Shown piece after piece: positions 1 through 18,040 of a stretch of DNA of 64,000 bases. Numbering within the stretch: the stretch's first letter is position 1; each line of letters opens with the position of its first letter. Below the pieces are notes generated by a model. It did not search any database. It was not told the DNA's origin and saw only the letters and a list, made by a program, of their open reading frames with translations. The stretch is from Guillardia theta CCMP2712 (lineage: Eukaryota; Protista; Cryptophyta), in NCBI RefSeq assembly GCF_000315625.1, contig NW_005434667.1:405160-469159 (forward strand), given 5' to 3'. The translations under genes and the position numbers were made by a program.

Positions 1-1
1 T

Positions 2-2464
2 CCAATAATTTTCAGATTCCTCTGAGAAGCCCGTAGTTATAGTAAAAGTATGAAGACACACATCTATGTTGTGTTCACTTATCAATCTTGGATTCTTGAT
101 GTACTTTTTTTGTTCTTCTTTATTATCCCCTGTGATTATGAGATGTTTGATGGCATGTTTATTGAATTCCTCTTCAAACCGTTGCTTGTTGCACTTGAAG
201 ACCACCACCCCACATATCTTATGTCCATTCTTCACATCCTCTATAATGTTTTTCAAGAAGTACTCTGATACATTGTACCTTTCTCTGTCAATATTTTTAG
301 AGTATCTACGTATATCACAGCGCAGGTTGTATCTCTGCTTGAAACGGATATCGTCTGTATGATAGAAATCTACCGGTTTGTTGAACCTCTTCGACAGATC
401 ATATAGAAAATCTACAGAGGCCCTGCTGAATCTAAATAGAGCTTCCGCAAATATTACCCTCTTCAGATCACTATAGGTGAATAGATCATTCAACACATTA
501 ACTATTTCCTCTCTCACATTCTTGTTCTTTCGCTCATCGGTTGTTGGATTTACCAATGAATTGGTGAGCTCATCTAACTCATCTATTATGATATATTCGT
601 AATCGAAGCGTTCTAACTTGCTAAGGGATTGGATAGAGATAATAAGACGTCCTTTCTTGAAGCGATCAGGAACTGTTATGTCATTGTACAGACTAAATGT
701 TTGGAGCCATTTCTCCATCATTATCCCATTCACTCTTGTCTTTAGAGTGGTTGCTAGATTTATGTTGGACACTATGATCAGAACATTATCTTCGCGGTTC
801 ATTATATCTTGGAGCATGTATTCGGTCTTCCCAAATCCCATTGAGGCTGATAGAGCAATGAATGTCTTATCTGACTCTATCTTCTCTCCAAATGAGGGAT
901 AAGGGAGCACATTGAACCTTTCCTTGATATAATCTAGACTGACTGTTGTGTTCCTTGGTAGGTTGTGTCTGTGCCACGATGAAACCACATTCTCATCATA
1001 CAACTTGGCAATCATTACAAGACTGCCAATTGGATCTGCCCATTGTAATGTAGACTTATGAAGCATGCTGTTTAGTCTTGACAACATCTCTTGTAGGGTC
1101 ATGTTCATTGAATCTGGACTGCCTTCCCTAAATGACTGTAGCAAACCATGTAAAGAACATAACTTTGTTTCATATAAGGACATTATGTTGTTTCGATGTA
1201 TCTCCACATCATCCGTTCTCATGGTTGGACACAGTCTCTCTAGCTCCTCGATCATCTGTCCTTTTGACAGGCTCCCATACCTCTTGACCTTCAATTCCTT
1301 ACACTTGTTCAGGAGTGTCACCTTGTTCCATGTTAGGTATTGACAATGATTTACATAGGCCTGATGGGTCCATTCTGTCATGAGTGATAGAAACACATCA
1401 ATCCTATCTTCATATTTGATGTGGACAGAGCCCTGTAAGTCATTGAACAATTCCTCAGAGGTTTCTGTCAAGAAGTTAGTGACTGTTAAGATTAACTTCT
1501 TCCAGTTATATGTGTCGATCGAATTTATATCATTCTTGATAGTCTTTATCACGAACATGACAAAGTGTTCATTAATATCTGGCTTCAATACATGTACATT
1601 GTTGTTCAATTGTAATGTCTCATTCACACGCCTTATAGGAACTATCTTCAAGGTCTTCTTTTTTTCACTCAATATACTCGGATCGAATTTAGAGAATCTA
1701 TTTGATTCTTCATATTCACCTACAAGGTATTTGTAGAATGGTTCTCCTCGTGGTTTTACCGCTCTCTTTATTGTAGGTGTTATGATGTATCGGTTGTTGT
1801 GGTAGATCATCTTGGATTGGTTGATAAGCCTGAATTGTTGATGCTGTTTGTAGATTGCCATGTCAATGACATTCTTCTGAAGACTTGGTAGATGTCTCTT
1901 TATCTTCACCTCAAAATCTGTTACAGGCACCTCTATTATCTTCATTAGGTCTCGACAATATCTCCAATCAAGGTATATTGGGAGTATCACATGGTAAGAC
2001 AATTTGTATCTTGCTTCCGCATGCTGTCTGCCACTCGATTCACATATGATTACATCGTCAGCATTCAATCCTTCAATGCCCAATTCAACTGTCATAACGT
2101 CTATGCTGTTCTTGGCGAACTCTATGATCTCATCTAATAGAGGATATTGGCCTTCTGATTGCATCTTCTCATATTCATTGGCCTTCTCTTCATCCTCAAC
2201 CATTATGTCTATATCAATTGGCAAACCTGTGTTTCTGCCATGTTTCAGGATCTCATATAGATTCAGGTTTTGGTCTATCATTGGATTCTTGTAATCTGTA
2301 ACACAGAACTCCTTTGTGACTTTCTTTTTGAGATCATTTGCGTGAATATTCTTCTTGTCACTGCTTAGAATGATGCTTGATCTTCCAAGAGGGTTCTCTT
2401 GGAAGAGTTTCCCATCTTTTATCTGACCATACCATTTCTTCACATGATCTGTCTTTTGTGACAT
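2..2464 (-). CDS. AEP (PrimPol-type) primase fused to a herpes UL9-like origin-binding SF2 helicase; 3' partial, >820 aa
   Basis: Hand translation from ATG 2464 (MSQKTDHVKKWYGQ...). AEP motifs LPIDIDI, KLSYHVI, IDMAIYKQHQQFRLINQSK. Walker A SASMGFGKT, Walker B YIIIDE, later motif DVCLHTFTITTGFS. The same frame still encodes helicase motifs at the window edge, which is why it is absent from the ORF track. Confidence 0.85.
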   Translation of the reverse strand, partial: MSQKTDHVKKWYGQIKDGKLFQENPLGRSSIILSSDKKNIHANDLKKKVTKEFCVTDYKNPMIDQNLNLYEILKHGRNTGLPIDIDIMVEDEEKANEYEKMQSEGQYPLLDEIIEFAKNSIDVMTVELGIEGLNADDVIICESSGRQHAEARYKLSYHVILPIYLDWRYCRDLMKIIEVPVTDFEVKIKRHLPSLQKNVIDMAIYKQHQQFRLINQSKMIYHNNRYIITPTIKRAVKPRGEPFYKYLVGEYEESNRFSKFDPSILSEKKKTLKIVPIRRVNETLQLNNNVHVLKPDINEHFVMFVIKTIKNDINSIDTYNWKKLILTVTNFLTETSEELFNDLQGSVHIKYEDRIDVFLSLMTEWTHQAYVNHCQYLTWNKVTLLNKCKELKVKRYGSLSKGQMIEELERLCPTMRTDDVEIHRNNIMSLYETKLCSLHGLLQSFREGSPDSMNMTLQEMLSRLNSMLHKSTLQWADPIGSLVMIAKLYDENVVSSWHRHNLPRNTTVSLDYIKERFNVLPYPSFGEKIESDKTFIALSASMGFGKTEYMLQDIMNREDNVLIIVSNINLATTLKTRVNGIMMEKWLQTFSLYNDITVPDRFKKGRLIISIQSLSKLERFDYEYIIIDELDELTNSLVNPTTDERKNKNVREEIVNVLNDLFTYSDLKRVIFAEALFRFSRASVDFLYDLSKRFNKPVDFYHTDDIRFKQRYNLRCDIRRYSKNIDRERYNVSEYFLKNIIEDVKNGHKICGVVVFKCNKQRFEEEFNKHAIKHLIITGDNKEEQKKYIKNPRLISEHNIDVCLHTFTITTGFSEESENYW

Positions 2465-2568
2465 TGTTTGATATGTTTTTTAAATTCAAATACTCATTTA
2501 TTCTTTAAGTATTTTTACGCATCTTGAAAAACAATTTAAGCATAATTAAGATATTATATTATATACAA

Positions 2569-2955
2569 ATGGAAACACCTACCTTATCCCCTGAAGAAAT
2601 CAAGAAAATCAAAAGGAGAGAGTATCAGCGTGAATATCAGAAAAACTACTGGACTGATAGAAAAATTGCTTATCAAAAAGCATACCAAAAAAACTACCAG
2701 CGAGGGTATCAATTACAATATCAAAGGACTCATCATACTACCTTGCAAAGGTATCATAACAAGACCCCCGAAGAAAAACAACAGGTCATCGAATACAACA
2801 AACAGTGGTTACAACAATTGTCTCCTGAAAAACAACAGGAATACAAGGATAATCATCGTGAAGCCTCTCTCAATTGGTATCATCAGAACAAAGATGAGAT
2901 CAATCGAAAGAGACGCGAAAGATATCAACAAAAGAAACTACTACAGAATTCCTAA
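2569..2955 (+). CDS. Small basic Y/Q/K/R-rich viral hypothetical protein
   Basis: ORF 2524..2955, first ATG at 2569 (METPTLSPEE). YQxxYQ repeats; C-terminus RRERYQQKK. Confidence 0.65.
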   Translation: METPTLSPEEIKKIKRREYQREYQKNYWTDRKIAYQKAYQKNYQRGYQLQYQRTHHTTLQRYHNKTPEEKQQVIEYNKQWLQQLSPEKQQEYKDNHREASLNWYHQNKDEINRKRRERYQQKKLLQNS

Positions 2956-2995
2956 TTCTTGTTTTTCCATTAAGCTATCCATTGCTTAATATTTT

Positions 2996-3180
2996 ACACG
3001 ATCACGTACCAAGCTTTTAGAAAAACCTTGACCAAAATATTCCATATGATACCTCTATATCACTCTTTAAATACTATACAGGCATGTTGTGATCATTCAA
3101 CCAAGATATCAACTATCATCTATATGGCGTTTGAAGAGATCATATAGAGACATATATGGATCTTGTACCAAGCATTGTGT
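2996..3180 (+). repeat. Structured non-coding element, copy 1 (long imperfect hairpin)
   Basis: Starts ACACGATCACGTAC, ends TTGTACCAAGCATTGTGT. Internal complementary blocks TCCATAT/ATATGGA, CTCTATAT/ATATAGAG, CTCTTTAAAT/GTTTGAAGAG. Confidence 0.85.
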
Positions 3181-3194
3181 ATTTATGTGTCAGT

Positions 3195-3533
3195 CTAAGC
3201 GCGTTCGGGGCGCTCCCCGATAGCTCTCTTCTGCTCCTGATACCTCTCACGTCTTCTTGCCTTGATCCGTTCCCGTTTTACAGGGTCTTCATATTGCTTC
3301 CTGTTGCCTTCCTTGACTCTCTCTCTGAATTCTTCATCTGCTTTGTACCTATCATTACGGTAACGTCTTAGATAGTCATTGATTCTTTCTCTGAATTCTG
3401 GATCTGTATTATATCGAGTCTTGTTATACTCTGCAATATAATCATAAATCTCTTGTATTGTCCCATCCTCTTTTCTTCGTTGTAGATAGGCTTTGTTGTA
3501 TTGTCTCATAGCTTCTTTCTTGTCTTCCGACAT
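3195..3533 (-). CDS. Small basic Y/R/K/E-rich viral hypothetical protein, probable paralog of 2569..2955
   Basis: ORF 3195..3575, first ATG at 3533 (MSEDKKEAMRQY). C-terminal RRRERYQEQKR. The last codons lie inside the GC-hairpin repeat. Confidence 0.65.
   Translation of the reverse strand: MSEDKKEAMRQYNKAYLQRRKEDGTIQEIYDYIAEYNKTRYNTDPEFRERINDYLRRYRNDRYKADEEFRERVKEGNRKQYEDPVKRERIKARRRERYQEQKRAIGERPERA
3197..3220 (+). repeat. GC-rich hairpin motif AAGCGCGTTCGGGG-CGCT-CCCCGA
   Basis: Perfect TCGGGG/CCCCGA stem. Recurs at ~3782, 5848, 5878, 5945, 6935 and three times inverted at 16750-16902. Confidence 0.85.
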
Positions 3534-3580
3534 CCTCTTCTCTCTATATATTATACATTTTCTCTTTATATCCAACCTTT

Positions 3581-3740
3581 ACACGATCATGTACAATACA
3601 CAATATCACTGTTCTATAGCATTCTCTTTATATCATAAAGGTACGTTGTGATCATTCAACCAAGATATCTACTATCATCTATATGGCGTTTGATGAGGTG
3701 ATATAGAGACAATATATGGATCTTGTACGAGATGTTGTGT
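3581..3740 (+). repeat. Structured non-coding element, copy 2
   Basis: ACACGATCATGTACAA...TTGTACGAGATGTTGTGT. The left arm resembles copies 4/5 and the right arm resembles copy 1. Confidence 0.85.
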
Positions 3741-3878
3741 TATGTATTCATGTAGGCCTTACCTCAGTCTTACCTCAGTCTTAGCGCGTCCGGGAGGTCC
3801 CCTGTATCACACATCATCCTCATAACAAATTGATATAAGGAATAAACGAATATATATAGGTAGGTAGGTAAGTAAGCA

Positions 3879-5438
3879 ATGACTTCTAATAAACCCTCCC
3901 CTTTCGACTTTCTAGGCCATCTTGTATATGATGCCCAAGATCTCAAAAAGTTCAATCCCTCTTTTTTCTATGGATGTTCCTCCAAAGGTGTCCGACAAAT
4001 CATCATCAAACAATCTATCCCTCAGTCTGAATACTTCTTCGGACTTCTCACTAAGAATATCTGGAAGCAGTTCGACGCAGACTATAAGAAGGCCAAGCTC
4101 CTTCTCTCCCAACGGTGGGTCCTCGAACATGTCCCTAACATGATAGATCAACCTACACCTGTCCAAGAACAACCCGAACCTGTCAAAGAACAATCCGAAC
4201 CTGTCAAAGAACAACCCGAACCTGTTGAGGAGCAGACCGTCACACAGTGTGAGCCTGCGCCACCTATCATCGAGCTCAAGGATGAAGAGAAGTTCAAGGA
4301 TGATAAAGGAAAGTGTCTTGAGATTGAGGTCAGAGGGGAGAGAGAACATAATAAATGCTTCTTCAAGGTTTCGGATGTATCCAGAGCATTCAAGATGGAT
4401 AATATCCGAACTACTATTCTACATGCTGATAGAGGATATGTTGAAAGAGTTCATTATAAAACGTTTATTACGGTGCTCAATGAGCACACCACCGAACAGA
4501 ATAAAACGAATACACCGAATAAAACCTTTCAGAAGAGGCTCTTCCTTACATACAATGGCATGTTGAAGGTGTTGTTCTCTTCTAGGAGTGGCAATGCTGA
4601 AAATTTCCAAGAATGGGCTTCAAGGATCCTCTTTACGGTCCAGATGGGAACTATTGAACAGAAACAGGAATTGGCATCTACTATGCTTGGTGTAAACATT
4701 GATTCATTCAGGGAGTTCTTGAGTTGTGGGATCACACCCGAGGTGTCATGCTTGTATTTGATAACTCTGGGATATGTCAAGGATGTGAGAGATGATATGG
4801 ACATCCCTAAGAGACACAAGGACAATGCCATTGTTTGTAAGTTTGGTATAAGTAATAATATAGATCAGCGTTTGATGCAGCACAAGAGGGGGTTCAAGGA
4901 CATCGAGAGAATGGATATGAGAGTTAAATGTTTTGGATATATAGATAAGACGTATACTAGTAAGGCAGAGACGGAATTGAAACATGAGTTGTATGATGGT
5001 TTGGTGGCGGATGAGGAGATATCTGTGAGATTGGAGTATAAGAAGCATACGGAGATAGTGGTATTGACACCATTACAATTCAAGCATGTGACACAGAGTG
5101 TGTATCCGAATCTTACAAAGAGGTACGGTCAATCAGTGGCAAGATTTACGCAGGATATAGAGGAGTTGCGTAAGGAACTTGAACGACAGCAAGTGGAGCA
5201 TAAGAGGGAGCTTGAGCAACAAGAGAGAGAACATAAGAGGGAGCTTGAGCAACAAGAGAGAGAACATAAGAAAGACCTTGAACAACATGAGAAGGAGATG
5301 GAACATGTACGAGAGAGACATGAACTGGACATACAATTGCGGGTTGAACAGGAAAGGAATAAATCACTGACAATAATATCTGAACTGAAGGATACACTCT
5401 TAGCTATGTATAAAGCTTCACCTAAGATTCCCTTTTAG
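3879..5438 (+). CDS. NCLDV-type Bro-N-like DNA-binding protein with T5orf172/MUG113 (GIY-YIG-like) domain and coiled-coil tail
   Basis: 519 aa. PPIIELKDEEKFKD..EIEVRGER..CFFKVSDVSRAF..LFLTYNGMLKVLFSSR..FQEWA (Bro-N-like). LYLITLG..KFGISNNIDQRLMQH..AETELKH (T5orf172-like). EHKRELEQQER repeats. Confidence 0.75.
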   Translation: MTSNKPSPFDFLGHLVYDAQDLKKFNPSFFYGCSSKGVRQIIIKQSIPQSEYFFGLLTKNIWKQFDADYKKAKLLLSQRWVLEHVPNMIDQPTPVQEQPEPVKEQSEPVKEQPEPVEEQTVTQCEPAPPIIELKDEEKFKDDKGKCLEIEVRGEREHNKCFFKVSDVSRAFKMDNIRTTILHADRGYVERVHYKTFITVLNEHTTEQNKTNTPNKTFQKRLFLTYNGMLKVLFSSRSGNAENFQEWASRILFTVQMGTIEQKQELASTMLGVNIDSFREFLSCGITPEVSCLYLITLGYVKDVRDDMDIPKRHKDNAIVCKFGISNNIDQRLMQHKRGFKDIERMDMRVKCFGYIDKTYTSKAETELKHELYDGLVADEEISVRLEYKKHTEIVVLTPLQFKHVTQSVYPNLTKRYGQSVARFTQDIEELRKELERQQVEHKRELEQQEREHKRELEQQEREHKKDLEQHEKEMEHVRERHELDIQLRVEQERNKSLTIISELKDTLLAMYKASPKIPF

Positions 5439-5453
5439 AATCATGTTTTCTTC

Positions 5454-5640
5454 ACACGATCACGTACCAAGCTTTTAGAAAAACCTTGACCAAAATATTC
5501 CATATAACACCTCTATATCACTCTTTAAGTATTATATCAGCATGTTGAGATTATTCAACCTAGATATCACAACATGCCTATATTGTACTCCAGAAGCAGT
5601 GATAGAGAGTATCATATGGATCTTGTATGAGGTATTGTGT
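5454..5640 (+). repeat. Structured non-coding element, copy 3
   Basis: First ~75 nt are near-identical to copy 1. The right arm has diverged but still pairs (TATCACT/AGTGATA, GCATGTTG/CAACATGC). Confidence 0.85.
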
Positions 5641-5670
5641 GTGATTCATATAGGCCTTATTGTGTCCTTC

Positions 5671-5831
5671 ACACGATCACGTACAATACACAATATGACT
5701 CTTCTATATACTTCTCTTATGATCATATACAAAAATGTTGAGAATACAAAAATTAGGACATTCAACGAATATGTATAGAGTAAAAGAGCGGTACATAGCA
5801 GCATGATATAGTGTTGTACGAGACATTGTGT
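5671..5831 (+). repeat. Structured non-coding element, copy 4
   Basis: ACACGATCACGTACAA...TTGTACGAGACATTGTGT. The 5' ~95 nt are near-identical to copy 5. Confidence 0.85.
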
Positions 5832-5847
5832 CTGCCTGCCTAGGTCT

Positions 5848-5968
5848 AAGCGCGTTCGGGGCGCTCTCCCCGACAATAAGCGCGTCCGGGGGCGAAGCAA
5901 CGAAGTTGCTAAGCTTAGGAGCAAAGCTCCTTCGCATCCCCGGGGCGCGTTCGGGGCGCTCTCCCCGA
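5848..5968 (+). repeat. Cluster of three GC-rich hairpins; the middle one is a cloverleaf
   Basis: GCGCGTTCGGGGCGCTCTCCCCGA twice, flanking CCGGGG-GCGAAG[CAAC-GAA-GTTG][CTAAGCTTAG][GAGC-AAA-GCTC]CTTCGC-AT-CCCCGG. Confidence 0.85.
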
Positions 5969-5985
5969 TATGTGTTTTAGAATAA

Positions 5986-6713
5986 ATGTCTATAGGAAGC
6001 ATTCAAGATCACTTCAAATCATTCCACAAGTCTATGGATGATCTCTTGTTTATTCTAAAGGGTGTTCAACCGCGGATATTGGATAGAATTGATCGCATAT
6101 ATTATATAAATTTGGATAAGAGGATTGATAGGAAGGAGCATATAGAGAGGGAGATCCGAGAGATACTGGATGAGGATCTAAGTAAGACGGTGAGGATACC
6201 TGGAGTGATATATGATAAATTTGGTGGGAGATTGAGGGTGCGATAGGTTGTAGTATGGCGCATAGGAATGCGATAAGATTAGCGATAGAAGAGGATGTGA
6301 GAAATGTGATAATATTGGAGGATGATTTTAAATTTGTGTGTGATCGTGATAGATTGAAGTGTAATTTGGAGGGTTTTATGTTGAGATATGTGGATTATGA
6401 TATGTTGTTGTTTGGAGTGAGTTCACCGGAGGTGGAATATGAGAGAGAGTATGAGGATTTTAAGAGGATAAATTACAGTCAGACGACATCAGGGTATATG
6501 TTGTCGAAGAAGGGGTTAGAGAAGATGAGGGGTGTATGTGAAGTGAGCATAGATTCTCTCATTCAAACTAAGAATGTATCGAAGCATGCGATAGATATAC
6601 AATGGAACTCGATAATGAGAGAGGGGGAGGTGTATGTGTTTCCGTTTAGGGTTGGAAAACAGATAGAGAGCTACAGTGACATTGAAAGCAGATTTGTCTC
6701 ATATGGTGTTTAG
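5986..6713 (+). pseudogene. Glycosyltransferase family 25, split by a 1-nt frameshift at ~6226-6229 (pseudogene or sequencing error)
   Basis: IYYINLDKRIDRKEH in the first ORF; AIGCSMAH and IILEDD in the next frame. Adding one G to GGTGGGAG restores ...KFGGEIEGAIGCSMAHR... Confidence 0.8.
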
Positions 6714-6756
6714 ACCTTCTTTAAATCGTCTATATTGGTCTTTCCACGATGTCTTC

Positions 6757-6917
6757 ACACGATCACGTACAATACACAATATCACTCTTCTATATACTTC
6801 TCTTATGATCATATACAAACATGTTGAGAATACAAAAATTAGGACATTCAATGAACCTGTATGAAGAACAAAGATCATATATAGGAGCATGATATAAAGT
6901 TGTACGAGACATTGTGT
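6757..6917 (+). repeat. Structured non-coding element, copy 5
   Basis: Same termini as copy 4; followed 17 nt later by the cloverleaf GC hairpin. Confidence 0.85.
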
Positions 6918-6934
6918 CATTTGCATCCGGATGA

Positions 6935-7035
6935 AAGCGCGTTCGGGGGCGAAGCAACGAAGTTGCTAAGCTTAGGAGCAAAGCTCCTTCGCATCTCCCC
7001 GATAGCTATCCCCGACCCCGACCCCGATTCCGGGA
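6935..7035 (+). repeat. Cloverleaf GC hairpin plus short CCCCGA tandem
   Basis: 44-nt core identical to 5892-5935, followed by repeated CCCCGA. Confidence 0.8.
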
Positions 7036-7324
7036 TATAAGTCTATTTGCTAGAACGAGATATTCGAATGGTATTTTCTCATGGATGGTGTGCTAAGTGA
7101 TTTTGAATACACAGTTCATTTTTACCATCTTGTATAAAAATTATAGAATGTAAGAAGCAAAACAATCATGCTACAAAATAGTGAATGATTTGCATATAAC
7201 TACAGAGAATGATGAAGCTGAGATCTGTTGCGGATCTTAGCGGCTAAGACGGTCCGAGCCACATTTGCTATAGCACTTTTACTCATTATAAAGCATTTTG
7301 TAACCATTTGTAACCGTTTTAGGT

Positions 7325-7419
7325 AAAAGTGATCACGGTCGTTTAGTCTTCCCTCAACCAAACACCTACACAACCAACCCGCAACACCCGCTCTACCAAC
7401 ACCAACAGACAGATACACA
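7325..7419 (+). promoter_or_regulatory. Putative viral early promoter AAAAGTGA plus C/A-rich 5' leader, repeated before each HMG paralog
   Basis: Near-identical ~95-nt block upstream of 7420, 8192, 8937, 12259 and 12979. Resembles the Mimiviridae early motif AAAATTGA. Confidence 0.6.
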
Positions 7420-7983: not shown

Positions 7984-8034
7984 AGTGTGAACTCATACAC
8001 TCGGGCATATAAAGGAAGATAATCCTTTTTATGC
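7983..8034 (+). terminator. Double 3' hairpin after the HMG gene (also after 8722, 9512, 12768; variant after 13581)
   Basis: GAGTGT-8nt-ACACTC followed by GCATATAAAGGA-AGATAA-TCCTTTTTATGC. Confidence 0.55.
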
Positions 8035-8191
8035 TTTCATCATATTTCCTTTCATGATACTAAATGTATTTGTAGCAATCTGTTTCAACTCAAAGCAAAA
8101 GTGATCACGGTCGTTTAGTCTTCCCTCAACCAAACACCTACACGACCAACCCGCAACACCCGCTCTACCAACACCAACAGACAGATACACA

Positions 8192-9512: not shown

Positions 9513-9644
9513 AGTGTGAACTCATACACTCTGGCATATAAGGGAAGATAATCCTTTTTATGCTTTCATGAGTGTTGTCATTTATAATTGTACACATCTA
9601 AGGATGTATGTAAAATAAAAAATAGTGTGTATAGTTGATAATAA

Positions 9645-10781
9645 CTAAATGATGTCATAGTAGGTTTTACATTCTTCACAATCCATGACAAACCTTTCAT
9701 GTAAACACATCATGGGTTGAGAGCTAGCTTGAACATTGCTTTTATTCTGATTTTTTATTTCGATACAATCCTTGCAAGCAGAACGTCTTCTATTGTGTTC
9801 ACATATAGCTCCACCGCCACACTCCTTACATCTAGTCCTAAGCCTATCATGTTGACATAAGGAGCCACCACCGCAATCTTTACAAACTACCCTTCGTTTA
9901 TTATGCTGGCATATTCCCGCACCACCACAATCCTTGCATTCATATCTATATCTGCCATGTTCGCAAACACAACTGCCACCACAATCTTTACATCTGTTGA
10001 ACCGTTTGTTGTGTGGACATATATATGTGCCATGACATTCGCTACATAGATTCTTTTGTTTGTTGTGTGGACATATTCCAGAGCCACCACATTCCCGGCA
10101 AAGAGTCCTGATCATTTTGTGTTGACAGATAGATCCACCACCACAATCCTTGCATCTGTTCTTGATTATGTTGTGAACACATATTCCACTGCCACCACAA
10201 TCCTTACATGTGCGCTTCATCCTTTTATGAATACATATCTCGCTGCCACCACAATCCTTGCATCTGCTCCTGATCCTGTTGTGCTGGCATATTGAGCTGC
10301 CACCACATTCCTTACATTTAGCTTTTGCTTTATTATGTTGGCATATTCCTTTGCCGCCACATTCCTTGCAGATGTGCCTGACTTTGTTGTGAATGCATAT
10401 TGAACTGCCACCACATTCCTTGCATCTATTCTTGATCCTGTTGTGCGGACATATTGCGCTGCCACCACAATCCTTGCATCTGCTCTTGATCCTTTTGTGA
10501 ACACATAGCCCACTGCCACCACAATCCTTACACACATTCTTGATTCTATTGTGAACACATATTGCGCTGCCACCACATTCCTTACAGATGGTGTTGATCC
10601 TGTTGTGCTGACATATTGCGCTGCCACCACAATCCTTGCATCTGTTCTTCACTCTATTGTGAACACATAGCCCACTGCCACCACATTCCTTGCATACAAA
10701 TTTCTGTCTCTTGTGTGGACATATAGCAACACCATCACAGTCCTTACACTTATGCTTATTCCTATTATGAATACACCTCAT
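9645..10781 (-). CDS. Tandem zinc-finger-like repeat protein: 19 units of 18-aa C-x-H-x6-C-x2-C-GG plus one degenerate unit
   Basis: Repeats counted in the translation; AAAAAATGA ~39 nt upstream. Confidence 0.85.
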   Translation of the reverse strand: MRCIHNRNKHKCKDCDGVAICPHKRQKFVCKECGGSGLCVHNRVKNRCKDCGGSAICQHNRINTICKECGGSAICVHNRIKNVCKDCGGSGLCVHKRIKSRCKDCGGSAICPHNRIKNRCKECGGSSICIHNKVRHICKECGGKGICQHNKAKAKCKECGGSSICQHNRIRSRCKDCGGSEICIHKRMKRTCKDCGGSGICVHNIIKNRCKDCGGGSICQHKMIRTLCRECGGSGICPHNKQKNLCSECHGTYICPHNKRFNRCKDCGGSCVCEHGRYRYECKDCGGAGICQHNKRRVVCKDCGGGSLCQHDRLRTRCKECGGGAICEHNRRRSACKDCIEIKNQNKSNVQASSQPMMCLHERFVMDCEECKTYYDII

Positions 10782-10865
10782 GTTTTGTTTCTAGTAAGAT
10801 GATGGTTCTATTTCTAAAGTCATTTTTTAGAACAATAAAAATATACCTAAAATACATGCTTTTTT

Positions 10866-11354
10866 TCATTGAGAGATATGTTTGTAGAACATAGATGCCG
10901 AAATAGAATCTGGTGGAATGTAGTGATATAATATGAAATTGAAGAAGCCTGAATAATTTATATTTCGAGCATCATCCCATATGATGCGATCGTTGAAGAT
11001 GATCTCAAAAGTGAATATATCTGCGTCTTGTTTTATAGATCTCCATACACTCTTTGTCTCTTCAGAAGAATGTAGAAAGAATGTAACATATACCTTGTTT
11101 GTTACACCAGATGGTTCATTTGGTTTGGAAGTTATATCTTCTATATCTAGATTCATGCTCTTACAGATCTCTTTCATAATCAAACAGCATCTATCAAGGG
11201 TCTTGAACGCATCCGTCCATTCTTTCAATTCTGGATAGAGTGGAACAAGATCTCTTGTTATCCGTTCATACTCAATACAGTTTTTTTGATATTCTTGATA
11301 GAATGACAGTATATTCAGAACAGGCAGAGACATTGTTTGTTGTGTCATGCTCAT
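10866..11354 (-). CDS. Viral hypothetical protein
   Basis: 162-aa ATG ORF with AAAAAATGA just upstream; no recognised domain. Confidence 0.6.
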   Translation of the reverse strand: MSMTQQTMSLPVLNILSFYQEYQKNCIEYERITRDLVPLYPELKEWTDAFKTLDRCCLIMKEICKSMNLDIEDITSKPNEPSGVTNKVYVTFFLHSSEETKSVWRSIKQDADIFTFEIIFNDRIIWDDARNINYSGFFNFILYHYIPPDSISASMFYKHISQ

Positions 11355-11404
11355 AGTCTAGCATATAATCATTTTTTACTTAGAATGATGATAACATCAT
11401 GTCC

Positions 11405-12043
11405 TTATATCATCTCATCATTGAAGAATTGTTGAATGCTCTTACATTCCTTGCAACGATATTTCATTCGGTTGTGCGGACAGATGGAATTGCCGCCACA
11501 ATCCTTGCAACGACATTTTATTCGATCGTGTTTACACAATGACGCTCCACCACAGTCTTTACATATGCTCCTTACTTTATTGTGTGAACATATGGATCCA
11601 CCACCGCAGATCTTGCATGTGCTCCTTATTCGATTGTGTTGGCATATAGATCCGCCACCACATGCCTTGCATGTGCTCCGTCGTCTATTGTGTTGACATA
11701 TTGATGATCCACCGCACTCTTTGCATCTTGATCTGAGCTTGTTGTGTTCACATATTGATGATCCATGGCACTCCTTACATACACTTCTACGCCTCTTGTG
11801 TTTGCAGATAGATGATCCTCCACAATCCTTGCATCTATTGATTATGCGTTTGTGAGGACACAATGATTTACCCCCACAATCCCTACAATATTTTTTATTT
11901 CGCTTGTGCTTGCATAAATATTTTATCTGGCACTCTTCACACTTGTTCTTTATATGATTGTGATGGCAGAGTAAGAACGATTGGCACTCGTGACATTTCT
12001 CTTTATGTCTATTGTGTGGACACATCAACATGTGAACATTCAT
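11405..12043 (-). CDS. Tandem zinc-finger-like repeat protein: 11 units of C-x-H-x6-C-x2-C
   Basis: Same repeat unit as 9645..10781. Confidence 0.85.
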   Translation of the reverse strand: MNVHMLMCPHNRHKEKCHECQSFLLCHHNHIKNKCEECQIKYLCKHKRNKKYCRDCGGKSLCPHKRIINRCKDCGGSSICKHKRRRSVCKECHGSSICEHNKLRSRCKECGGSSICQHNRRRSTCKACGGGSICQHNRIRSTCKICGGGSICSHNKVRSICKDCGGASLCKHDRIKCRCKDCGGNSICPHNRMKYRCKECKSIQQFFNDEMI

Positions 12044-12258
12044 TGCTAAACAAGACCTAGAGCAGCTATTTTAGAGATGTATCAATAAAGATAATGAACA
12101 TAACTTTTATGTATTTTTGTACAACCTTCAATGTATTTGTAGCAATCTGTTCTATCTCAAAGCAAAAGTGATCACGGTCGTTTAGTCTTCCCTCAACCAA
12201 ACACCTACACAACCAACCCGCAACACCCGCTCTACCAACACCAACAGACAGATACGCA

Positions 12259-12768
12259 ATGGCCCCTACCACCATCAACACCGTTATCTCCATCATCACC
12301 TCCGACTTCCAGGATGTGATCGACAAGAAGGAGCTCATCCAGGTTCTCAAGACCAAGCAGGCCGAGATCAAGAAGGAGGCAAAGAACGCCAGAGCCGACA
12401 GGCCGCCCACTGCCTACAACGTCTACATGTGGGAGAAGATGAAGTCCAATGATCTCGCCAACCTCAAGCCCAAGGAGAGGATGTCTGTCATCTCCAAGCA
12501 ATGGAAGGATGATGCCGAGCAGTACAAGGCCGACAAGGCGTGGTATGATCGCGCCTCGGAGGAGATGAGACAGGAGAAGGAGGCGAAGAAGACACAAGGC
12601 AAGGACACATCCAAGGCGGAAGCCAAGGAGGTCGAGAAGGAGGCTAAGAAGGCCGCCAAGGAGGCTGAGAAGGAGGCTAAGAAGGCCGCCAAGGAGGCTG
12701 AGAAGGAGGCTAAGAAGGCCGCCAAGGAGGCCGAGAAGCAGGCCAAGAAGGCCGCTAAGACAAAATAG
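12259..12768 (+). CDS. HMG-box-like + E/K/A repeat protein, paralog 4
   Basis: Near-identical N-terminus, leader and 3' hairpins. Confidence 0.8.
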   Translation: MAPTTINTVISIITSDFQDVIDKKELIQVLKTKQAEIKKEAKNARADRPPTAYNVYMWEKMKSNDLANLKPKERMSVISKQWKDDAEQYKADKAWYDRASEEMRQEKEAKKTQGKDTSKAEAKEVEKEAKKAAKEAEKEAKKAAKEAEKEAKKAAKEAEKQAKKAAKTK

Positions 12769-12978
12769 AGTGTGAACTCAAACACTCGGGCATATGAAGG
12801 AAGATAATCCTTTTTATGCTTTTGTCTTACAATTCCTTGAATGATATCAAATGTATTTGTAGCAATCTGTTCTATCTCAAAGCAAAAGTGATCACGTTCG
12901 TTTAGTCTTCCCTCAACCAAACACCTACACAACCAACCCGCAACACCCGCTCTACCAACACCAACAGACAGATACACA

Positions 12979-13581
12979 ATGGCCCCTACCACCATCAGCA
13001 CCGTTATCTCCATCATCTCCTCCGACTTCCAGGACGTCATCGACAAGAAGGAGCTCATCCAGGTCCTCAAGACCAAGCAGGCCGAGATCAAGATGGAGGC
13101 AAAGAACGCCAGAGCCGACAGGCCGCCCACTGCCTACAACGTCTACATGTGGGAGAAGATGAAGTCCGAGGATCTCGCCAACCTCAAGCCCAAGGAGAGG
13201 ATGTCCATCATCTCCAAGCAATGGAAGGATGATGCCGAGCAGTACAAGGCCGACAAGGCGTGGTATGATCGCGCCTCGGAGGAGATGAGACAGGAGAAGG
13301 AGGCGAAGAAGACAGAAGACAAGGACACATCCAAGGAGGCAGAGAAGGAGGCTAAGAAGGCTGAGAAAGAGGCTGAGAAGGAGGCTAAGAAGGCCGAGAA
13401 AGAGGCTGAGAAGGAGGCTAAGAAGGCTGAGAAGCAGGCTGCCAAGGAGGCTGAGAAGGAGGCTAAGAAGGCCGAGAAAGAGGCTGAGAAGGAGGCTAAG
13501 AAGGAAGCAAAGAAGGCCGCTAAGGAGGCCGAGAAGGAGGCTAAGAAGGCCGAGAAGAAGGCCGCTAAAAACAATAAGTAA
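12979..13581 (+). CDS. HMG-box-like + E/K/A repeat protein, paralog 5
   Basis: Near-identical N-terminus; longest tail. Confidence 0.8.
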   Translation: MAPTTISTVISIISSDFQDVIDKKELIQVLKTKQAEIKMEAKNARADRPPTAYNVYMWEKMKSEDLANLKPKERMSIISKQWKDDAEQYKADKAWYDRASEEMRQEKEAKKTEDKDTSKEAEKEAKKAEKEAEKEAKKAEKEAEKEAKKAEKQAAKEAEKEAKKAEKEAEKEAKKEAKKAAKEAEKEAKKAEKKAAKNNK

Positions 13582-13690
13582 TATTATAAAACATTGGCAT
13601 AGACAAGGAGAGTATGATCTTCTTTTTATGCCTTCACAACAAGAATGAAAAAAAACACACTTATATTCTTCAATTTGTAATTGATGCTAT

Positions 13691-14125
13691 TTATGAAGAC
13701 AGAGTTTCATTCTCAACATGTTCCATAAATTCTTGAACATTATTCTCTCTGTCTAATTCTTCAATGAGTTGTATTGTATTGATATTGTTGTGTTTCTCTT
13801 CATATGTATTCCAAAACTCCAATAGCCTTTTCTTGAGCGGTGTTGGCGTGCGATTCGGCAATACGGAATATTTGTGTTGGATTGACCAACGACTTATATT
13901 GAAGAATCTACAACATTGTGTGAGTTGTTTTTTTGATACATTATAGATGTTAGAGATATCTGACTTCTTCATGTCCATCATAGCTATAAGCGTATCCTTT
14001 GTTATTGGAATGTCAATATAGTCTTTTGATCGCAAAACATAACATCTTGGAGAAGGAATTACATCTCTCATATTTGTATGAGACAATGATGATATGTTCT
14101 TATGTTGGTTCAATGCTTTGTCCAT
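13691..14125 (-). CDS. Divergent RWP-RK-domain-like protein
   Basis: ITKDTLIAMMDMKKSDISNIYNVSKKQLTQCCRFFNISRWS follows RWP-RK spacing (L...F.LP...AA..LGV..T.LK..CR..GI.RWP). Intronless, with CAAAATGA upstream. Confidence 0.6.
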   Translation of the reverse strand: MDKALNQHKNISSLSHTNMRDVIPSPRCYVLRSKDYIDIPITKDTLIAMMDMKKSDISNIYNVSKKQLTQCCRFFNISRWSIQHKYSVLPNRTPTPLKKRLLEFWNTYEEKHNNINTIQLIEELDRENNVQEFMEHVENETLSS

Positions 14126-14227
14126 TGTTGTATGGTGAAAATCTGAAAATCAATCATCATTTTGATTCACATCTTGCCTATGGCATAAGTGATATAAATA
14201 TTTTTTTGATAAGAGAATTCAAGAATT

Positions 14228-14761
14228 ATGGTAAGATATTATTGTCTGTATTGTGGATACAACACGCCACGCCATTATAGCTTCAAGCGCCATTATAAGC
14301 GAAAGACGCAATGTGTGGAGATCTTATGGAACAAACCGAATCCAACCGGGATTGTGAATGAATTTGGCAAGGAAACTATCTTACACATATCTGAGATATT
14401 CTTCACAAGATGTGTCAACAACTATGCGAAAGGATTCAGAGATCTCTTCACCAAGATACACTTTGACAATCCTGCCAACAACAACATTCGCGCTGGCACT
14501 ATTGATAGTGATCACATTGAGATCTTGAGGGATGGCCAATGGAGATCATGCCATGAGAAGGATGTGTTTGCAGATATTATATCACGATACAGGTCAATGC
14601 TCCTAGATTTCTATCGAAACAATGAGAACATGCAAAAGATAGACCATGATAGAGAGAAATATGAATACATCTCAAGCATTGAATACAATACACAAGAGTG
14701 TAGCATCATAGAAAAGTTGCTCTCTCATGTCATGAAGCAATCAACACAATCATCTAACTAA
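14228..14761 (+). CDS. C2H2 zinc-finger NCLDV protein (MIGE-like family)
   Basis: YYCLYCGY..FKRHYKRKTQC, then NEFGKE and KIHFDNPANNNI, a motif set typical of multicopy Mimiviridae zinc-finger ORFs. Confidence 0.6.
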   Translation: MVRYYCLYCGYNTPRHYSFKRHYKRKTQCVEILWNKPNPTGIVNEFGKETILHISEIFFTRCVNNYAKGFRDLFTKIHFDNPANNNIRAGTIDSDHIEILRDGQWRSCHEKDVFADIISRYRSMLLDFYRNNENMQKIDHDREKYEYISSIEYNTQECSIIEKLLSHVMKQSTQSSN

Positions 14762-14795
14762 GAATAAAAATAATAGAGATATGTCTCATAGCATT

Positions 14796-15773
14796 TCAGA
14801 AGATTCTTTGCTTCTTCCGTGCCATCTTATATGTATCATTTTCTTTCTCGAGACTTTCATTGTCCTCTGCCAACAAACGGACATGATTCTCCAATCCTCT
14901 TGTCTTTAGAAGCAGATCAGAGTTTTTCTTATCGAGTTCTTTCATGGCCTTTACCTTCTCATCAAATTGCTGGTTGAGTGATTCATTTGTTTTAGAGATC
15001 TGTGTGTATTTTATATCAAGATTGTGTATCTTTGCTATCAATCGCATGCGCTCTTTGTTTAGATCATGTAGACTCTTCTTGAGCTTATCATTTTCTTCAA
15101 CCATGCGAGCATTTGTTTCTTCAATCCGCTTTGAGTTCTCAAGTCTGTTGAAAAGAGATTGATTCTCATATGATACCGCTAACAATCTGTTGTTGGCTTC
15201 AGTGCTGTTCACTCTTAGTTGTGCACACTCCATGCGCAAACCTGTTATATCCTGCTTGAGCTTCTTATTCTCTTCCAATGTTTTCTTGAGCTTCTTATTC
15301 TCTTCCATCATAGTCATATTTTTTTCATGGAGTTGCTTTATGATGTTGTCCTTTTGATAGAGTTCATTTGATGTCCTTTTATTGCATAGGTATTTGTTAG
15401 ATGGCACCTGTGATTGTGTGAACTCTTCCAATGTCTTCTTCAGCTTTTTGTTCTCTTCAAGGATCTTGGCATTCTCAAGCTCCATTCCTTGTGTCCTCTC
15501 ATTCAATTCTCTTATATGCTCTTGCGATTTAGATGCTGCAGTGTTTGGTTGATCCTCATTGCTTTCTTGTTGCGATGCCAAAAGACGGTTCGACAGATTT
15601 GCGTTCAATATACAGACATTGTACAACTTGTTGTTGAACATGTTCCTTTCATTCTGTAATCTTGTTATCTCTTTCTTGAGCTCGTTGATATCTTCATCCT
15701 TGTTCTTGTTATACAGGTCAAACATCTTGACCTTCTCCTTCAGAATCATTATCTCATCACTTTGAGTGTCCAT
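14796..15773 (-). CDS. Coiled-coil viral hypothetical protein
   Basis: 325 aa, repeated EENKKLKKTL, basic NLS-like C-terminus RKKQRIF; TAAAAATGA ~35 nt upstream. Confidence 0.7.
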   Translation of the reverse strand: MDTQSDEIMILKEKVKMFDLYNKNKDEDINELKKEITRLQNERNMFNNKLYNVCILNANLSNRLLASQQESNEDQPNTAASKSQEHIRELNERTQGMELENAKILEENKKLKKTLEEFTQSQVPSNKYLCNKRTSNELYQKDNIIKQLHEKNMTMMEENKKLKKTLEENKKLKQDITGLRMECAQLRVNSTEANNRLLAVSYENQSLFNRLENSKRIEETNARMVEENDKLKKSLHDLNKERMRLIAKIHNLDIKYTQISKTNESLNQQFDEKVKAMKELDKKNSDLLLKTRGLENHVRLLAEDNESLEKENDTYKMARKKQRIF

Positions 15774-15897
15774 ATCAGATTGCCTAAACTATAGTGATAT
15801 AGTCCAATCATTTTTATATCCATCTGTATTCTTTTGCTGTCAATGAGCTCTTGAATAAAAATGAATGTGTATTATATATTCAACACAATATCAATCA

Positions 15898-16692
15898 ATG
15901 GATCTGAGAGACCTTATTGAATCCAAGGACTTCTTGGAAGAATCTATAAATGAAACAGACATTGTCATCAAGAGCATCAAGAAGGATGATCTCGTGTACA
16001 TTTTCCGAAACATCAATGACAATGCCACAGAGAAGTTAGAAGATGATCGAGAGCGATGCAAATTCATGATATACAAGCATAGGACCTATACAGACAGGTA
16101 TATAAGGAATGTACATTTGCTGATCAAGAAGCTGTTGGAGCATGACAGATCTCTCTTCAAGGAATTGCCTGAAGAGCACGTGATCCAAATCTTTGTGTAT
16201 CTCAACTATGATGAATCATATCACAATGAGTGTGTCGAATTCATCAAATTGTTCGAGGATGATAAGGATTGGTTGGAAAGATTCATTAGGAAAGATACCT
16301 ATGATCATTGTAAGCTTCCTATATTCGATACACCAGTGGATGTAAATGTGTATCTTCTTGTGAGAGCCATGCAATATGATGCCTTGTTGTATGATATCGA
16401 TCATTGCCATCATATCACTCTGTACAATGCGGATTCAATTCTACAGAGATTGAGGGATCTATCTAAATTGAAGAAGAAGAACACCATCTTCATGAAGCGC
16501 CTGAGGTTGCTTATAAAGATCTTAGACAAATTACAGAAGAGGAGCGAGGTTTGTATGGTAGGCAATCTAGAGCATTATGAACGAGAGATTGAGATATTTG
16601 ACGCGTCAAATCCATCACTCATGAAGAAAAAGAGCGATGGTTTCTTCGATCTGACTTCTATGGTTGACTATGATACCATAAAAAACTTGTAA
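15898..16692 (+). CDS. Viral hypothetical protein
   Basis: ORF 15865..16692. ATG 15898 is preferred because it lies ~34 nt after AAAAATGA (15857-15864). Confidence 0.65.
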   Translation: MDLRDLIESKDFLEESINETDIVIKSIKKDDLVYIFRNINDNATEKLEDDRERCKFMIYKHRTYTDRYIRNVHLLIKKLLEHDRSLFKELPEEHVIQIFVYLNYDESYHNECVEFIKLFEDDKDWLERFIRKDTYDHCKLPIFDTPVDVNVYLLVRAMQYDALLYDIDHCHHITLYNADSILQRLRDLSKLKKKNTIFMKRLRLLIKILDKLQKRSEVCMVGNLEHYEREIEIFDASNPSLMKKKSDGFFDLTSMVDYDTIKNL

Positions 16693-16749
16693 CAAAAAAC
16701 ATATTCATATGTCTTATATTTTATTGTCTGAATTTATGGATGAAACATG

Positions 16750-16902
16750 TCGGGGAGCGCCCCGAACGCGCTTTGACTGAGGTGAGGTTGACATAACATC
16801 TCGGGGAGCGCCCCGAACGCGCTTTGACTGAGGTGAGGTTGACATAACATCTCGGGGAGCGCCCCGAACGCGCTTTGACTGAGGTGAGGTTGACATAACA
16901 TC
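16750..16902 (-). repeat. Three tandem 51-bp units: scaffold 3' end + 17-nt segment + GC hairpin
   Basis: Unit on the minus strand: GATGTTATGT-CAACCTCACCTCAGTCA-AAGCGCGTTCGGGGCGCTCCCCGA. Confidence 0.9.
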
Positions 16903-17072
16903 CTTTGCGGACTCATATCATGTTCCTATGTATTCTTATTCTCATACCTGTGTGCTATGTCGTTGGTATAAATTTTCCTAATATCTCTTTTTTAGGTCCA
17001 GTCTCAGAAATAACATGATTTTGGTGTACATCATAAAAATTATACTAAAGGTTTTTGTAAGGATTTTGCCTG
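16893..17072 (-). repeat. Divergent sixth copy of the structured non-coding element, inverted
   Basis: Minus-strand ATAGGAACATGATATGAGTCCGCAAAGGATGTTATGT aligns with the copy-5 end ATAGGAGCATGATATAAAGTTGTACGAGACATTGTGT. Arms ATCCTT/AAGGAT and ATCATGTT/AACATGAT. Confidence 0.55.
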
Positions 17073-17175
17073 TTCCGGCATAAAAATGAAGGAAGGATGA
17101 AAGCCATACATCAACCAATCGCTACACACACAACCAGTTTATCAAAGACCCAATCCATCTCAAGACCAACAGACA

Positions 17176-17733
17176 ATGTCCACCATGAACTTTCAGTCCA
17201 TCATTGCTCTCATCAATGAGGAGTTTGATGATGCCATCGACAAGAAGCAACTCATCCGTGCCATCAAGACCAAGGAGACTGAATTGAAGAGGGCAGCCAA
17301 GGAGGCAAAGGCAGATAAGCCTCCTTCAGTGTACAATGTGTACATGTGGGAGAAGATGAAGAACCTTGATCTTGGAGACATTGCTCCAAAGGAAAGGATG
17401 TCATACATCTCGAAGATGTGGAAGGAAGAGGCCGATCAATACAAGGCCGATAAGAAGTGGTATAATGCCACATCAGAGAAGATGAGACAGGACAAGATCA
17501 TAAGACAAGCGGACAAGGATGCCAAGAAGGCTGAAAAAGATGCCGAGAGAGAGGCTCAGAAAGAAGCGAAAAAGGCTCAGAAGGAAGCAGAGAAAGATGC
17601 CAAGAAGGCAGATAAGAAGAAGGAGGCTGCGAAGGAACCTGCTGTAGATTCCGAAGCAGAACCTGAAGCAGAACCCGTGAAGAAAGAAGTCAAGAAGGTT
17701 GCCAATCAAGCAGCCAAGAAAACAAAGAAATAA
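17176..17733 (+). CDS. Divergent HMG-box-like + E/K/A tail protein, paralog 6
   Basis: KPPSVYNVYMWEKMK..PKERMSYISKMWKEEADQYKADKKWY; TAAAAATGA and a C/A-rich leader upstream. Confidence 0.8.
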   Translation: MSTMNFQSIIALINEEFDDAIDKKQLIRAIKTKETELKRAAKEAKADKPPSVYNVYMWEKMKNLDLGDIAPKERMSYISKMWKEEADQYKADKKWYNATSEKMRQDKIIRQADKDAKKAEKDAEREAQKEAKKAQKEAEKDAKKADKKKEAAKEPAVDSEAEPEAEPVKKEVKKVANQAAKKTKK

Positions 17734-17815
17734 TCATATCGATGTAAGAGATTATGTGTGATTGTGTATAACTAAAGTAATATTTTATAATTTTTATCAT
17801 TGTTCAGCATTAGAT

Positions 17816-18040
17816 TCATATCTTATCTTTATCTGATATGTAGGATTCAACACTCCAATCATGTGTGTTCTGCCATCTGAGTGTGATGTAATAGACAATC
17901 TCATCATCTCTTGATCTCACAATGAATGTATTGCCATTCTTTATATCTTCATTTACACTCTTCATAGCGAGTCCATCTGCTGTTATCTGGTCTATGTAGA
18001 ATTGTTCTTTGCTCCACATGATGTTCAAGTCAACAACCTC
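17816..18040 (-). pseudogene. 5'-truncated viral ORF at the virus/host junction
   Basis: The AT-rich frame continues to ~18,040, enters GC-rich sequence and meets an upstream stop with no proper start or promoter motif. Confidence 0.45.

Follow-up and report, generated by a model that had tools for sequence, protein, structure and literature searches.

Fragments of giant viruses integrated in algal genomes are already known, and as a class such findings are not new. The punuivirus element of Chlamydomonas reinhardtii measures 617 kb, reactivates, and carries intron-bearing latency genes that are expressed (10.64898/2026.10.09.758095). Few large viruses of cryptophytes are known. Cryptomonad giant viruses of the Imitervirales exist (PMC12747079), and a VLTF3 protein of the cryptophyte Guillardia theta has been grouped with those of Mimiviridae (PMC5294986; blank G. 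theta cells in Table 1 of that paper are not readable as absence). Here we describe an 18-kb block of virus-type DNA at the left of a 64,000-nucleotide stretch (the window) of G. theta CCMP2712, RefSeq contig NW_005434667.1, positions 405,160–469,159. We conclude that the block is probably a piece of a large virus with a double-stranded DNA genome, captured recently, truncated, and almost silent; the virus was likely a nucleocytovirus whose early promoter is of the Imitervirales type. A published description of the block was not found in the portions of the literature available to us; it may be contained in the maps of Figure 4 of PMC10827195, the region tables of 10.1101/2025.04.19.649669, or the ariadnavirus supplements.

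A sequence-only reading of this DNA had proposed an intronless, AT-rich, virus-like block contiguous with algal host genes, and these properties were all recovered. Positions 1 to ∼18,030 of the window are intron-free, of virus type, and 41% GC, whereas the DNA to the right is host DNA of 51% GC. Across the whole window, GC is 41.0% to the left and 51.2% to the right, and each of the four ranges tested put the maximum-likelihood change point at 18,036. The observed/expected CpG ratio is 0.59 in the block and 0.81 on the host side. Nineteen open reading frame (ORF) intervals cover 78% of positions 1–18,036. Per kb, a branch-point-plus-acceptor pattern occurs 0.17 times in the block and 1.81 times in host DNA, a tenfold difference; a fuller intron-like pattern failed to distinguish the sides (0.39 per kb in the block, 0.46 per kb in the host DNA). 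Of the ten host-side frames scanned, eight gave Pfam hits to clear families (EGF, ephrin-receptor-like, bromodomain, PHD, HEAT, rubrerythrin, pseudouridine synthase, and NAD-binding), one matched DUF3712/LEA_2, and one had no Pfam hit. As the feature is drawn here, the block (1–18,024, unstranded, 41% GC, 78% coding) continues beyond the left edge of the window, and its metagenomic relatives diverge after 18,024. Its join to the host chromosome, the break in composition with dense intron-free ORFs, and nearest characterized relatives that are viral identify it as an endogenous viral element.

Of 24 read runs listed, five (X1, X2, X6, X7, and X21) were compared with positions 1–7,760 and 13,620–21,600; positions 7,761–13,619 lay outside the comparison. 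X1 was marked as a run from which the assembly may derive, and the same could hold for X2; the contigs of both are built from reads. An X1 contig of 4,503 bases (16,873–21,375) crosses the junction with no differences, extending 1,152 bases to the left and 3,339 to the right. An X2 contig (17,914–18,193), from a separate study and year, also crosses without differences, with 111 and 157 bases on either side. With the junction spanned in this way by perfectly matching contigs of two studies (2011 and 2021), we consider a chimera very unlikely. The earlier statement that no assembly gap lies at the junction also holds: the sole N run of the window (21,669–21,768) is 3.6 kb to the right. Depth agrees with host linkage. 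The X1 junction contig has a depth of 66.6 and the neighboring viral contig 89.8, other exact viral contigs range from 68 to 115, and the viral DNA in X1 is near single copy.

We place the junction at 18,024–18,036 (unstranded), between the point where two X6 contigs part from the window (18,024) and the GC change point at 18,036, within the span bridged by X1 and X2. The boundary of ∼18,040 suggested earlier corresponds to a real junction, although likeness to metagenomic relatives already ends at 18,024. A repeat ending at the junction was not found. A 12-mer immediately to the right of the junction has a second occurrence at 46,083, which we took as chance, ∼55 starts having been tried. The last ORF of the block (17,816–18,019, minus strand, 67 residues) starts 5 nt inside the boundary and may be complete or may have lost its 5′ end; by visual inspection, the 30 loose letters past 18,024 contain no stop in its frame, which is weak evidence.

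Close relatives of the block come from X6, a freshwater metagenome, which covers all 30 bins of both compared stretches. Among the pieces listed, four within 14,042–17,784 are 98.8–99.8% identical to the window and a second variant is 89–95% identical; in 1–6,715 identities are 88–96% with one exception at 99.6%, and the two host-side pieces are 93.6% and 96.0% identical. Because the X6 viral DNA is closer to the window than the X6 host flank is, the insertion should be younger than the split of the two hosts, and the insert is likely recent and from a lineage that is still about. Among the contigs listed, X6 viral contigs have depths of 9–73 and two host contigs 6–7, and bin depth drops from 49 to 1.6 across the junction. 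Two X6 contigs part from the window at 18,024 and continue for a median of 200 other letters. Since these relatives run on past that point, the block is likely truncated at the right. X6 repeat bins reach depths of 1,611–2,127, against 34–43 in single-copy bins, although summed depth is no copy number. Of the alternatives of recent integration or latency raised earlier, the near-identity of X6 supports recency; the cut appearance of the right end and the near absence of RNA lend latency no support.

Related genes are present elsewhere in the G. theta genome, in keeping with the proposal of an endogenous element from a virus of a cryptophyte-like host. A G. theta gene model (P0009), on a record of 1,226,574 bases, is 99.5% identical over 396 residues to the translation of window positions 2,464–1,277, and an exact-sequence look-up placed 7 of 16 other block proteins on a record of the same 1,226,574 bases. 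Paralogs of this gene, with 81–85% amino-acid identity, lie on G. theta records of 577 kb and 7.9 kb. P0009 ends after a predicted splice. That splice is likely a gene-finder artifact, because in the window the frame is uninterrupted over 821 codons and can be aligned with both paralogs along its whole length. The diverged copies on other scaffolds would likely reflect repeated capture of related viruses. At transition sites the window tends to have A/T where X6 or X1 paralogs have G/C (94 versus 57, 162 versus 127, and 74 versus 46; P = 0.003, 0.045, and 0.013, the first count taking in host positions). This bias and the low CpG ratio may reflect methylation-driven decay of the window copy.

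The gene in question (2–2,464, minus strand, open for 821 codons to the window edge) encodes a predicted fusion of an AEP primase with a UL9-like superfamily 2 (SF2) helicase. Alignment profiles matched the herpes origin-binding protein (E = 1e-14) and PrimPol (E = 5e-4), and the catalytic motifs are conserved in the alignment (DxD at 83–87 and SYH at 156). Atlas placed the protein at 0.95 with a Herpes_ori_bp/PriCT_2 cluster. The best Foldseek hit was a protein of Pyramimonas orientalis virus (E = 3e-16), with Marseillevirus also at the top (14–15% identity), and named nucleocytoviruses supplied 6 of the 10 best hits in a Foldseek search with the helicase. On these grounds we assign the ORF as a predicted AEP-UL9 primase-helicase of the R8/F1055L type. 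Among 1.84 billion representatives, only nine proteins were found at E = 0.001, the G. theta model and eight metagenomic proteins with 27–33% identity. Best hits for the block were other G. theta copies, metagenomic proteins, and giant-virus records, rather than the ordinary cellular genes that might have undone the viral interpretation. The claim that the gene set is typical of Nucleocytoviricota is upheld by these viral relatives and weakened in its diagnostic value, since AEP-UL9 proteins also occur in Polinton-like viruses (PLVs), mriyaviruses, and ariadnaviruses, as far as the available parts of those sources go.

Scans of IMG/VR revealed no relative of the primase-helicase or of its polymerase-fused relative P0015, and a scan of prokaryote genomes found no relative of the primase-helicase. 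A metagenome scan for the latter confirmed at least one locus among 598 stretches listed. P0015, on a 12-kb JGI/IMG contig, is a single chain of 2,246 residues that joins an AEP primase, a UL9-like helicase, and an exonuclease-bearing family B DNA polymerase; judged by its domains, it would hold a whole replisome core within one protein. Another metagenomic locus (L003, 2,090–8,345) is a 6.2-kb unit bounded by inverted repeats (192 nt, 98%) and holds an AEP-UL9 gene (P0016), a Cys-rich coiled-coil ORF, and a small ORF. We regard this unit as a putative transpoviron-like replicon with an SF2 replicase.

The earlier observation of a shared upstream motif was borne out and made specific. The octamer AAAAATGA occurs six times in the block and is absent from the 46 kb of host DNA. 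An order-2 Markov null gave a mean of 1.1, and none of 200 simulations reached six. With a limit of 110 nt to the start codon, five of the six copies count as upstream of an ORF on the same strand, at distances of 8–94 nt (P = 0.003 versus intergenic positions). The same octamer is reported as the likely early promoter of a giant virus, Aureococcus anophagefferens virus (AaV), and differs at one position from the mimivirus motif (PMC5917014, as far as its available text shows); the mimivirus motif itself is absent from the block. The resemblance to an Imitervirales-type early promoter is supporting rather than formal evidence, and the octamer appears to be the best pointer to Nucleocytoviricota. 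The block behaves like a giant endogenous viral element, and the accessory genes and the octamer make membership in Nucleocytoviricota likely. The lineage call is built on accessory genes and an AT-rich 8-mer because no hallmark gene is in view, consistent with the earlier remark that neither capsid nor polB was seen and that the lineage could not be fixed; no hallmark was found among the ORFs scanned.

Much of the block, including six HMG-box-like genes and dispersed hairpin and intergenic repeats, had gone unnamed in the sequence-only reading. The six genes are all on the plus strand: copies 1 (7,420–7,983, with a Lys/Glu/Ala helical tail and a probable transcript), 2 (8,192–8,722), 3 (8,937–9,512), 4 (12,259–12,768), and 5 (12,979–13,581), and the divergent copy 6 (17,176–17,733), which is 55% identical to copy 1 over 110 residues. 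Their products have a common core of 110 residues followed by a Lys/Glu/Ala tail predicted as one long helix. The tail is only mildly basic (e.g., 30 Lys versus 25 Asp plus Glu), and therefore not histone-H1-like. The best PDB profile hits of the core were UBF1 (E = 0.009) and TFAM (E = 0.011), and HMG proteins filled 12 of 13 rows. In Atlas, all seven rows shown were viral HMG clusters, most commonly of Nucleocytoviricota; with scores of 0.83–0.88, below 0.9, they are a lead only. Pfam gave no HMG hit at E = 0.1, a Foldseek search with a single-sequence model (pTM 0.30) was empty at E = 0.001 and, when widened, listed only coiled coils, and a scan of IMG/VR with the HMG alignment found no relative.

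Copies 1–5 are 97–98% identical. Their polymorphic sites comprise 14 synonymous and 7 non-synonymous changes, where the synonymous share of sites is 19% (P = 3e-6), and the genes are under purifying selection. GC content at third codon positions is 0.77–0.84 in copies 1–5, 0.57 in copy 6, and 0.34–0.49 in other block genes. The motif AAAAGTGA is found 95–101 nt upstream of each of copies 1–5, at the place where copy 6 has AAAAATGA (94 nt upstream); the copies are thus likely viral paralogs and not inserted host genes.

RNA from the block is scarce. In X21, an RNA run of which 6% was read and in which host depth was low too, mean depth was ≤0.44 in every block bin and peaked at 4.5 over a host gene. 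X7, taken as RNA by guess, covers 3 of 30 bins. One X7 contig (7,382–7,760) matches without differences, begins 38 nt upstream of the start codon of HMG copy 1, and spans four sites private to that copy, which probably fits a copy 1 transcript better than DNA carry-over. The comparison of expression with host genes thus came out with the block likely almost silent, apart from this one probable transcript.

The sequence-only reading had named AEP/UL9, Bro-N, GT25, and C2H2 genes, and all are present, at different strengths. The Bro-N protein (3,879–5,438, plus strand, 519 residues) exceeds the Pfam cut-off (PF02498, E = 1.6e-5). Two IMG/VR records are 28–30% identical to it, one of them within a 235-kb giant-virus bin with VLTF3. 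The GT25-like glycosyltransferase (5,986–6,713, plus strand) matches PF01755 weakly, below the cut-off, in both of the halves into which the assembly splits it. At 6,235, X1 (107 of 107 depth) and X6 (42 of 42) have one base more. Because contigs of both runs carry the extra base, this sole apparent frameshift is an assembly slip, and because the gene is uninterrupted at 6,235 in the read contigs, no broken gene is left among those checked, as expected from the earlier claim that most ORFs are intact. The C2H2 zinc-finger ORF (14,228–14,761, plus strand, 177 residues) has a weak zf-C2H2 match, below the cut-off, and an FGKE string; the earlier label was C2H2-FGxE. Logan contigs hold relatives at 99% and 82%, and the IMG/VR scan gave only a 20-residue match.

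Most ORFs other than the helicase, Bro-N, and HMG-like genes were assigned to no family. An ORF rich in Tyr, Gln, and Arg (2,569–2,955, plus strand, 128 residues) belongs to no family. The ORF at 3,195–3,533 (minus strand, 112 residues) resembles the small ORF next to the L003 primase-helicase (42% over 48 residues, pairwise E = 8e-6). Two proteins contain Cys/His repeats: one of 378 residues with 18-residue repeats (9,645–10,781, minus strand, AAAAATGA 46 nt upstream) and one of 212 residues (11,405–12,043, minus strand); the Cys-repeat protein had no relative in the IMG/VR scan. Between them is an ORF of 162 residues (10,866–11,354, minus strand, no family, AAAAATGA 22 nt upstream). A 144-residue ORF (13,691–14,125, minus strand) has a weak RWP-RK-like stretch (Pfam E = 0.001, below the cut-off), possibly a captured domain of an algal transcription factor. 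Further right are a likely coiled-coil protein (14,796–15,773, minus strand, 325 residues, AAAAATGA 42 nt upstream) and a 275-residue ORF of no family (15,865–16,692, plus strand, AAAAATGA 8 nt upstream).

An intergenic repeat of 200–270 nt is present in five copies within 2,993–7,030, all on the plus strand, and a GC-rich hairpin motif ends four of them. Copy A (2,993–3,220) has its terminal GC-rich hairpin motif overlapping the end of the 3,195–3,533 ORF, copy B (3,552–3,810) belongs to the same family, copies C and D (5,451–5,975) end, in D, in a GC-rich stem-loop cluster, and copy E with its hairpin (6,753–7,030) folds with z = −2.7. The stem-loop cluster of copy D has z = −3.5, and none of 200 shuffles was as stable. 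Two hairpin copies are marginal (z = −2.0 and −1.7), and in the AT-rich repeat parts folding was not more stable than in shuffled sequence (z = −0.6 and 0.2). At 16,744–16,902 (minus strand), the hairpin motif is present in three tandem copies of 51 nt that are inverted relative to the others. The core motif occurs eight times in the block and not in the host part. X1 and X6 contigs pass from repeat to repeat within 3,094–5,606, for example from 3,572 to 5,455, omitting Bro-N; such joins are either shuffled gene cassettes in other copies or repeat artifacts. By analogy with UL9-like helicases, one may guess that the hairpin repeats serve as replication origins. The only exact IMG/VR match to the hairpin motif falls within a gene on a phage-like, GC-rich contig, and we attribute it to chance. 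Seven letters in common with HSV-1 oriS Box I, as given in the available text of PMC13483431, are too short for evidence.

On the host side, the first ORF past the junction (19,090–19,340), ∼1 kb from the insert, has an RS-repeat at its start. Two very long host genes face each other in 21,238–39,196. The plus-strand member has EGF and ephrin-receptor-like cysteine repeats in 648-nt tandem units and contains the N gap; the exons of the minus-strand member, 870–1,485 codons long, consist of a repeated unit that matches none of the checked families. A rubrerythrin gene (39,358–40,197) adjoins the far side of the long minus-strand gene.

Several observations weigh against a nucleocytovirus fragment that is recent and silent. 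No capsid, packaging ATPase, PolB, D5, VLTF3, or RNA polymerase was found among the 15–16 block ORFs scanned. The Foldseek identities for the primase-helicase are 10–19% with TM-scores ≤0.30, herpesvirus proteins stand among the ranked hits, and Atlas lists Preplasmiviricota and fungal clusters for the protein as well. In the one giant-virus bin with a Bro-N relative, helicase-profile matches were 0 of 1. A long-read study of 11 strains reports no giant endogenous elements in its available text (PMC12220804). Outside the near-identical pieces, the X6 pieces listed are 88–96% identical, and the X6 DNA could reside as an insert in the genome of a different cryptophyte, the rest of which does not match the window. 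The silence of the block is judged from two runs. The depth of the X1 viral contigs, often 1.3–1.7 times that of the junction contig, and the possible role of X1 as assembly source would suit a co-sequenced contaminant or free virus mis-joined to a host scaffold; exact bridging by read-derived contigs from two studies, the lack of any N gap within 3.6 kb of the junction, and depths of ∼1:1 rather than many-fold leave that idea scarcely credible.

A more serious challenge comes from mirusviruses, which have an HK97-fold capsid and belong to Duplodnaviria. In PMC10827195, as far as its text was available, the G. theta assembly scores as positive for the mirusvirus major capsid protein, Triplex2, and maturation protease genes, a result that itself counts against a nucleocytovirus, and clade E03 lists G. 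theta, with 18 homologs in three cryptophyte assemblies, one from a freshwater reservoir. An insert from such a virus, for example of the cryptophyte clade E03, could have picked up accessory genes as nucleocytoviruses do; multiple copies in one genome would fit, as would the lack of close IMG/VR relatives of the helicase, HMG, and Cys-repeat proteins. The block itself agrees less well: a Pfam scan of the 18 kb found no HK97 capsid, portal, triplex, or terminase and none of TBP, heliorhodopsin, histone, Snf2, or Snf7 from the core list of PMC12768974, its ORFs are uninterrupted whereas the freshwater-prevalent Styxvirales are described there as intron-rich, and the upstream octamer equals an Imitervirales early promoter (PMC5917014). 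A tie between the G. theta capsid genes and the scaffold of the block was not found in the available parts of PMC10827195. On balance, a mirusvirus origin seems somewhat unlikely. A smaller integrating element (PLV, mriyavirus, or transpoviron-like replicon) with an AEP-SF2 replicase is, to our mind, quite improbable, even though such replicases are a sizeable minority in polisuviruses (10.64898/2026.10.13.758929) and occur in some mriyaviruses (10.1101/2024.02.29.582850), and three integrated PLVs are described in G. theta (PMC4642659), to judge by the available portions of these sources. The eight metagenomic helicase relatives are on contigs of 5–12 kb, and the nearest with readable context (L003) is in a 6-kb inverted-repeat unit more like a small mobile replicon, P0016 and a small ORF like that at 3,195–3,533 being flanked by the 192-nt, 98% repeats. 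Short contigs are, however, usual in metagenomes, and a larger virus may harbor the replicase, by itself, as a mobile module. Matches to capsid, ATPase, integrase, or HUH proteins were absent from the 18 kb, much of whose length is taken up by gene families of six and two members and dispersed repeats; the depth of the X6 repeat bins suggests much more such DNA per genome, and the G. theta PLV replicases described in the available part of PMC4642659 are AEP-SF3, not SF2.

We therefore retain a captured fragment of a large, probably nucleocytovirus-type, virus as the working explanation. Viral DNA would reach the nucleus in the course of an infection from which the cell recovered, and end-joining repair would fix it there; alternatively, a longer insert would later have lost its right part. 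As viral genes, those of the block would belong to the early class: priming and unwinding of DNA would fall to the AEP-UL9 protein, perhaps with the dispersed hairpin repeats as its sites, and the HMG-box-like array would be a plentiful source of a DNA-bending protein. Within the alga, transcription of most block genes would depend on a viral RNA polymerase, and the host enzyme probably transcribes one HMG copy. A bolder extension, which we hold to be unlikely as a whole, is an undescribed lineage of large cryptophyte viruses still in circulation, for which our searches found no close relative, with replication by a UL9-like primase-helicase on dispersed hairpin origins, an accordion-amplified HMG array that packages or remodels chromatin in place of histones, repeated integration in Guillardia, and a host-transcribed HMG copy. 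The reference cryptophyte gains a verified, intact insert with a mapped junction, and near-identical freshwater DNA gives an otherwise orphan virus a likely host. Among the "hypothetical proteins" of G. theta, some are viral; in one, the annotation includes a splice for which the open frame has no need. Being under selection and possibly expressed, the HMG-like array offers a testable case of viral gene amplification, perhaps of early domestication.

Compared with described systems (each as far as the cited source was available), the block shares with the G. theta PLVs an integrated DNA-virus element in the same genome and an AEP-helicase fusion, but those elements carry capsid, ATPase, tyrosine recombinase, and an SF3 helicase (PMC4642659), whereas the block has SF2/UL9 and none of the others in its 18 kb. 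Mirusvirus clade E03 has the same host species and fresh multi-copy viral signals, but is defined by an HK97 capsid, of which there is none in the window (PMC10827195). The "Ariadnavirales" resemble the block in AEP-UL9 (in SmDNAV), an HMG-box protein, glycosyltransferases, and a lack of introns (10.64898/2026.08.29.747986); the pairing of AEP-UL9 with an HMG-box protein recurs in the block, although neither gene is exclusive to the group. That group is defined by capsid, ATPase, and VLTF3 phylogeny, and the available text mentions no cryptophyte host. With the punuivirus giant endogenous viral element of C. reinhardtii (10.64898/2026.10.09.758095) the block has in common integration in an algal chromosome, intact genes, and an AT-rich, nucleocytovirus-type motif upstream of intron-free genes; it differs in its 18 kb in view, an apparently cut right end, near absence of RNA, and lack of a hallmark gene. 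AaV and other viruses of the Mimiviridae clade differ in that helicase identity to the Foldseek hits is 12–15%, with no sequence-level tie, and the block has no RNA polymerase or capsid in view. They share with it AEP-UL9 proteins (Pyramimonas orientalis virus, Catovirus, and Indivirus in Foldseek), AT-rich DNA with dense genes, and the identical octamer AAAAATGA (PMC5917014).

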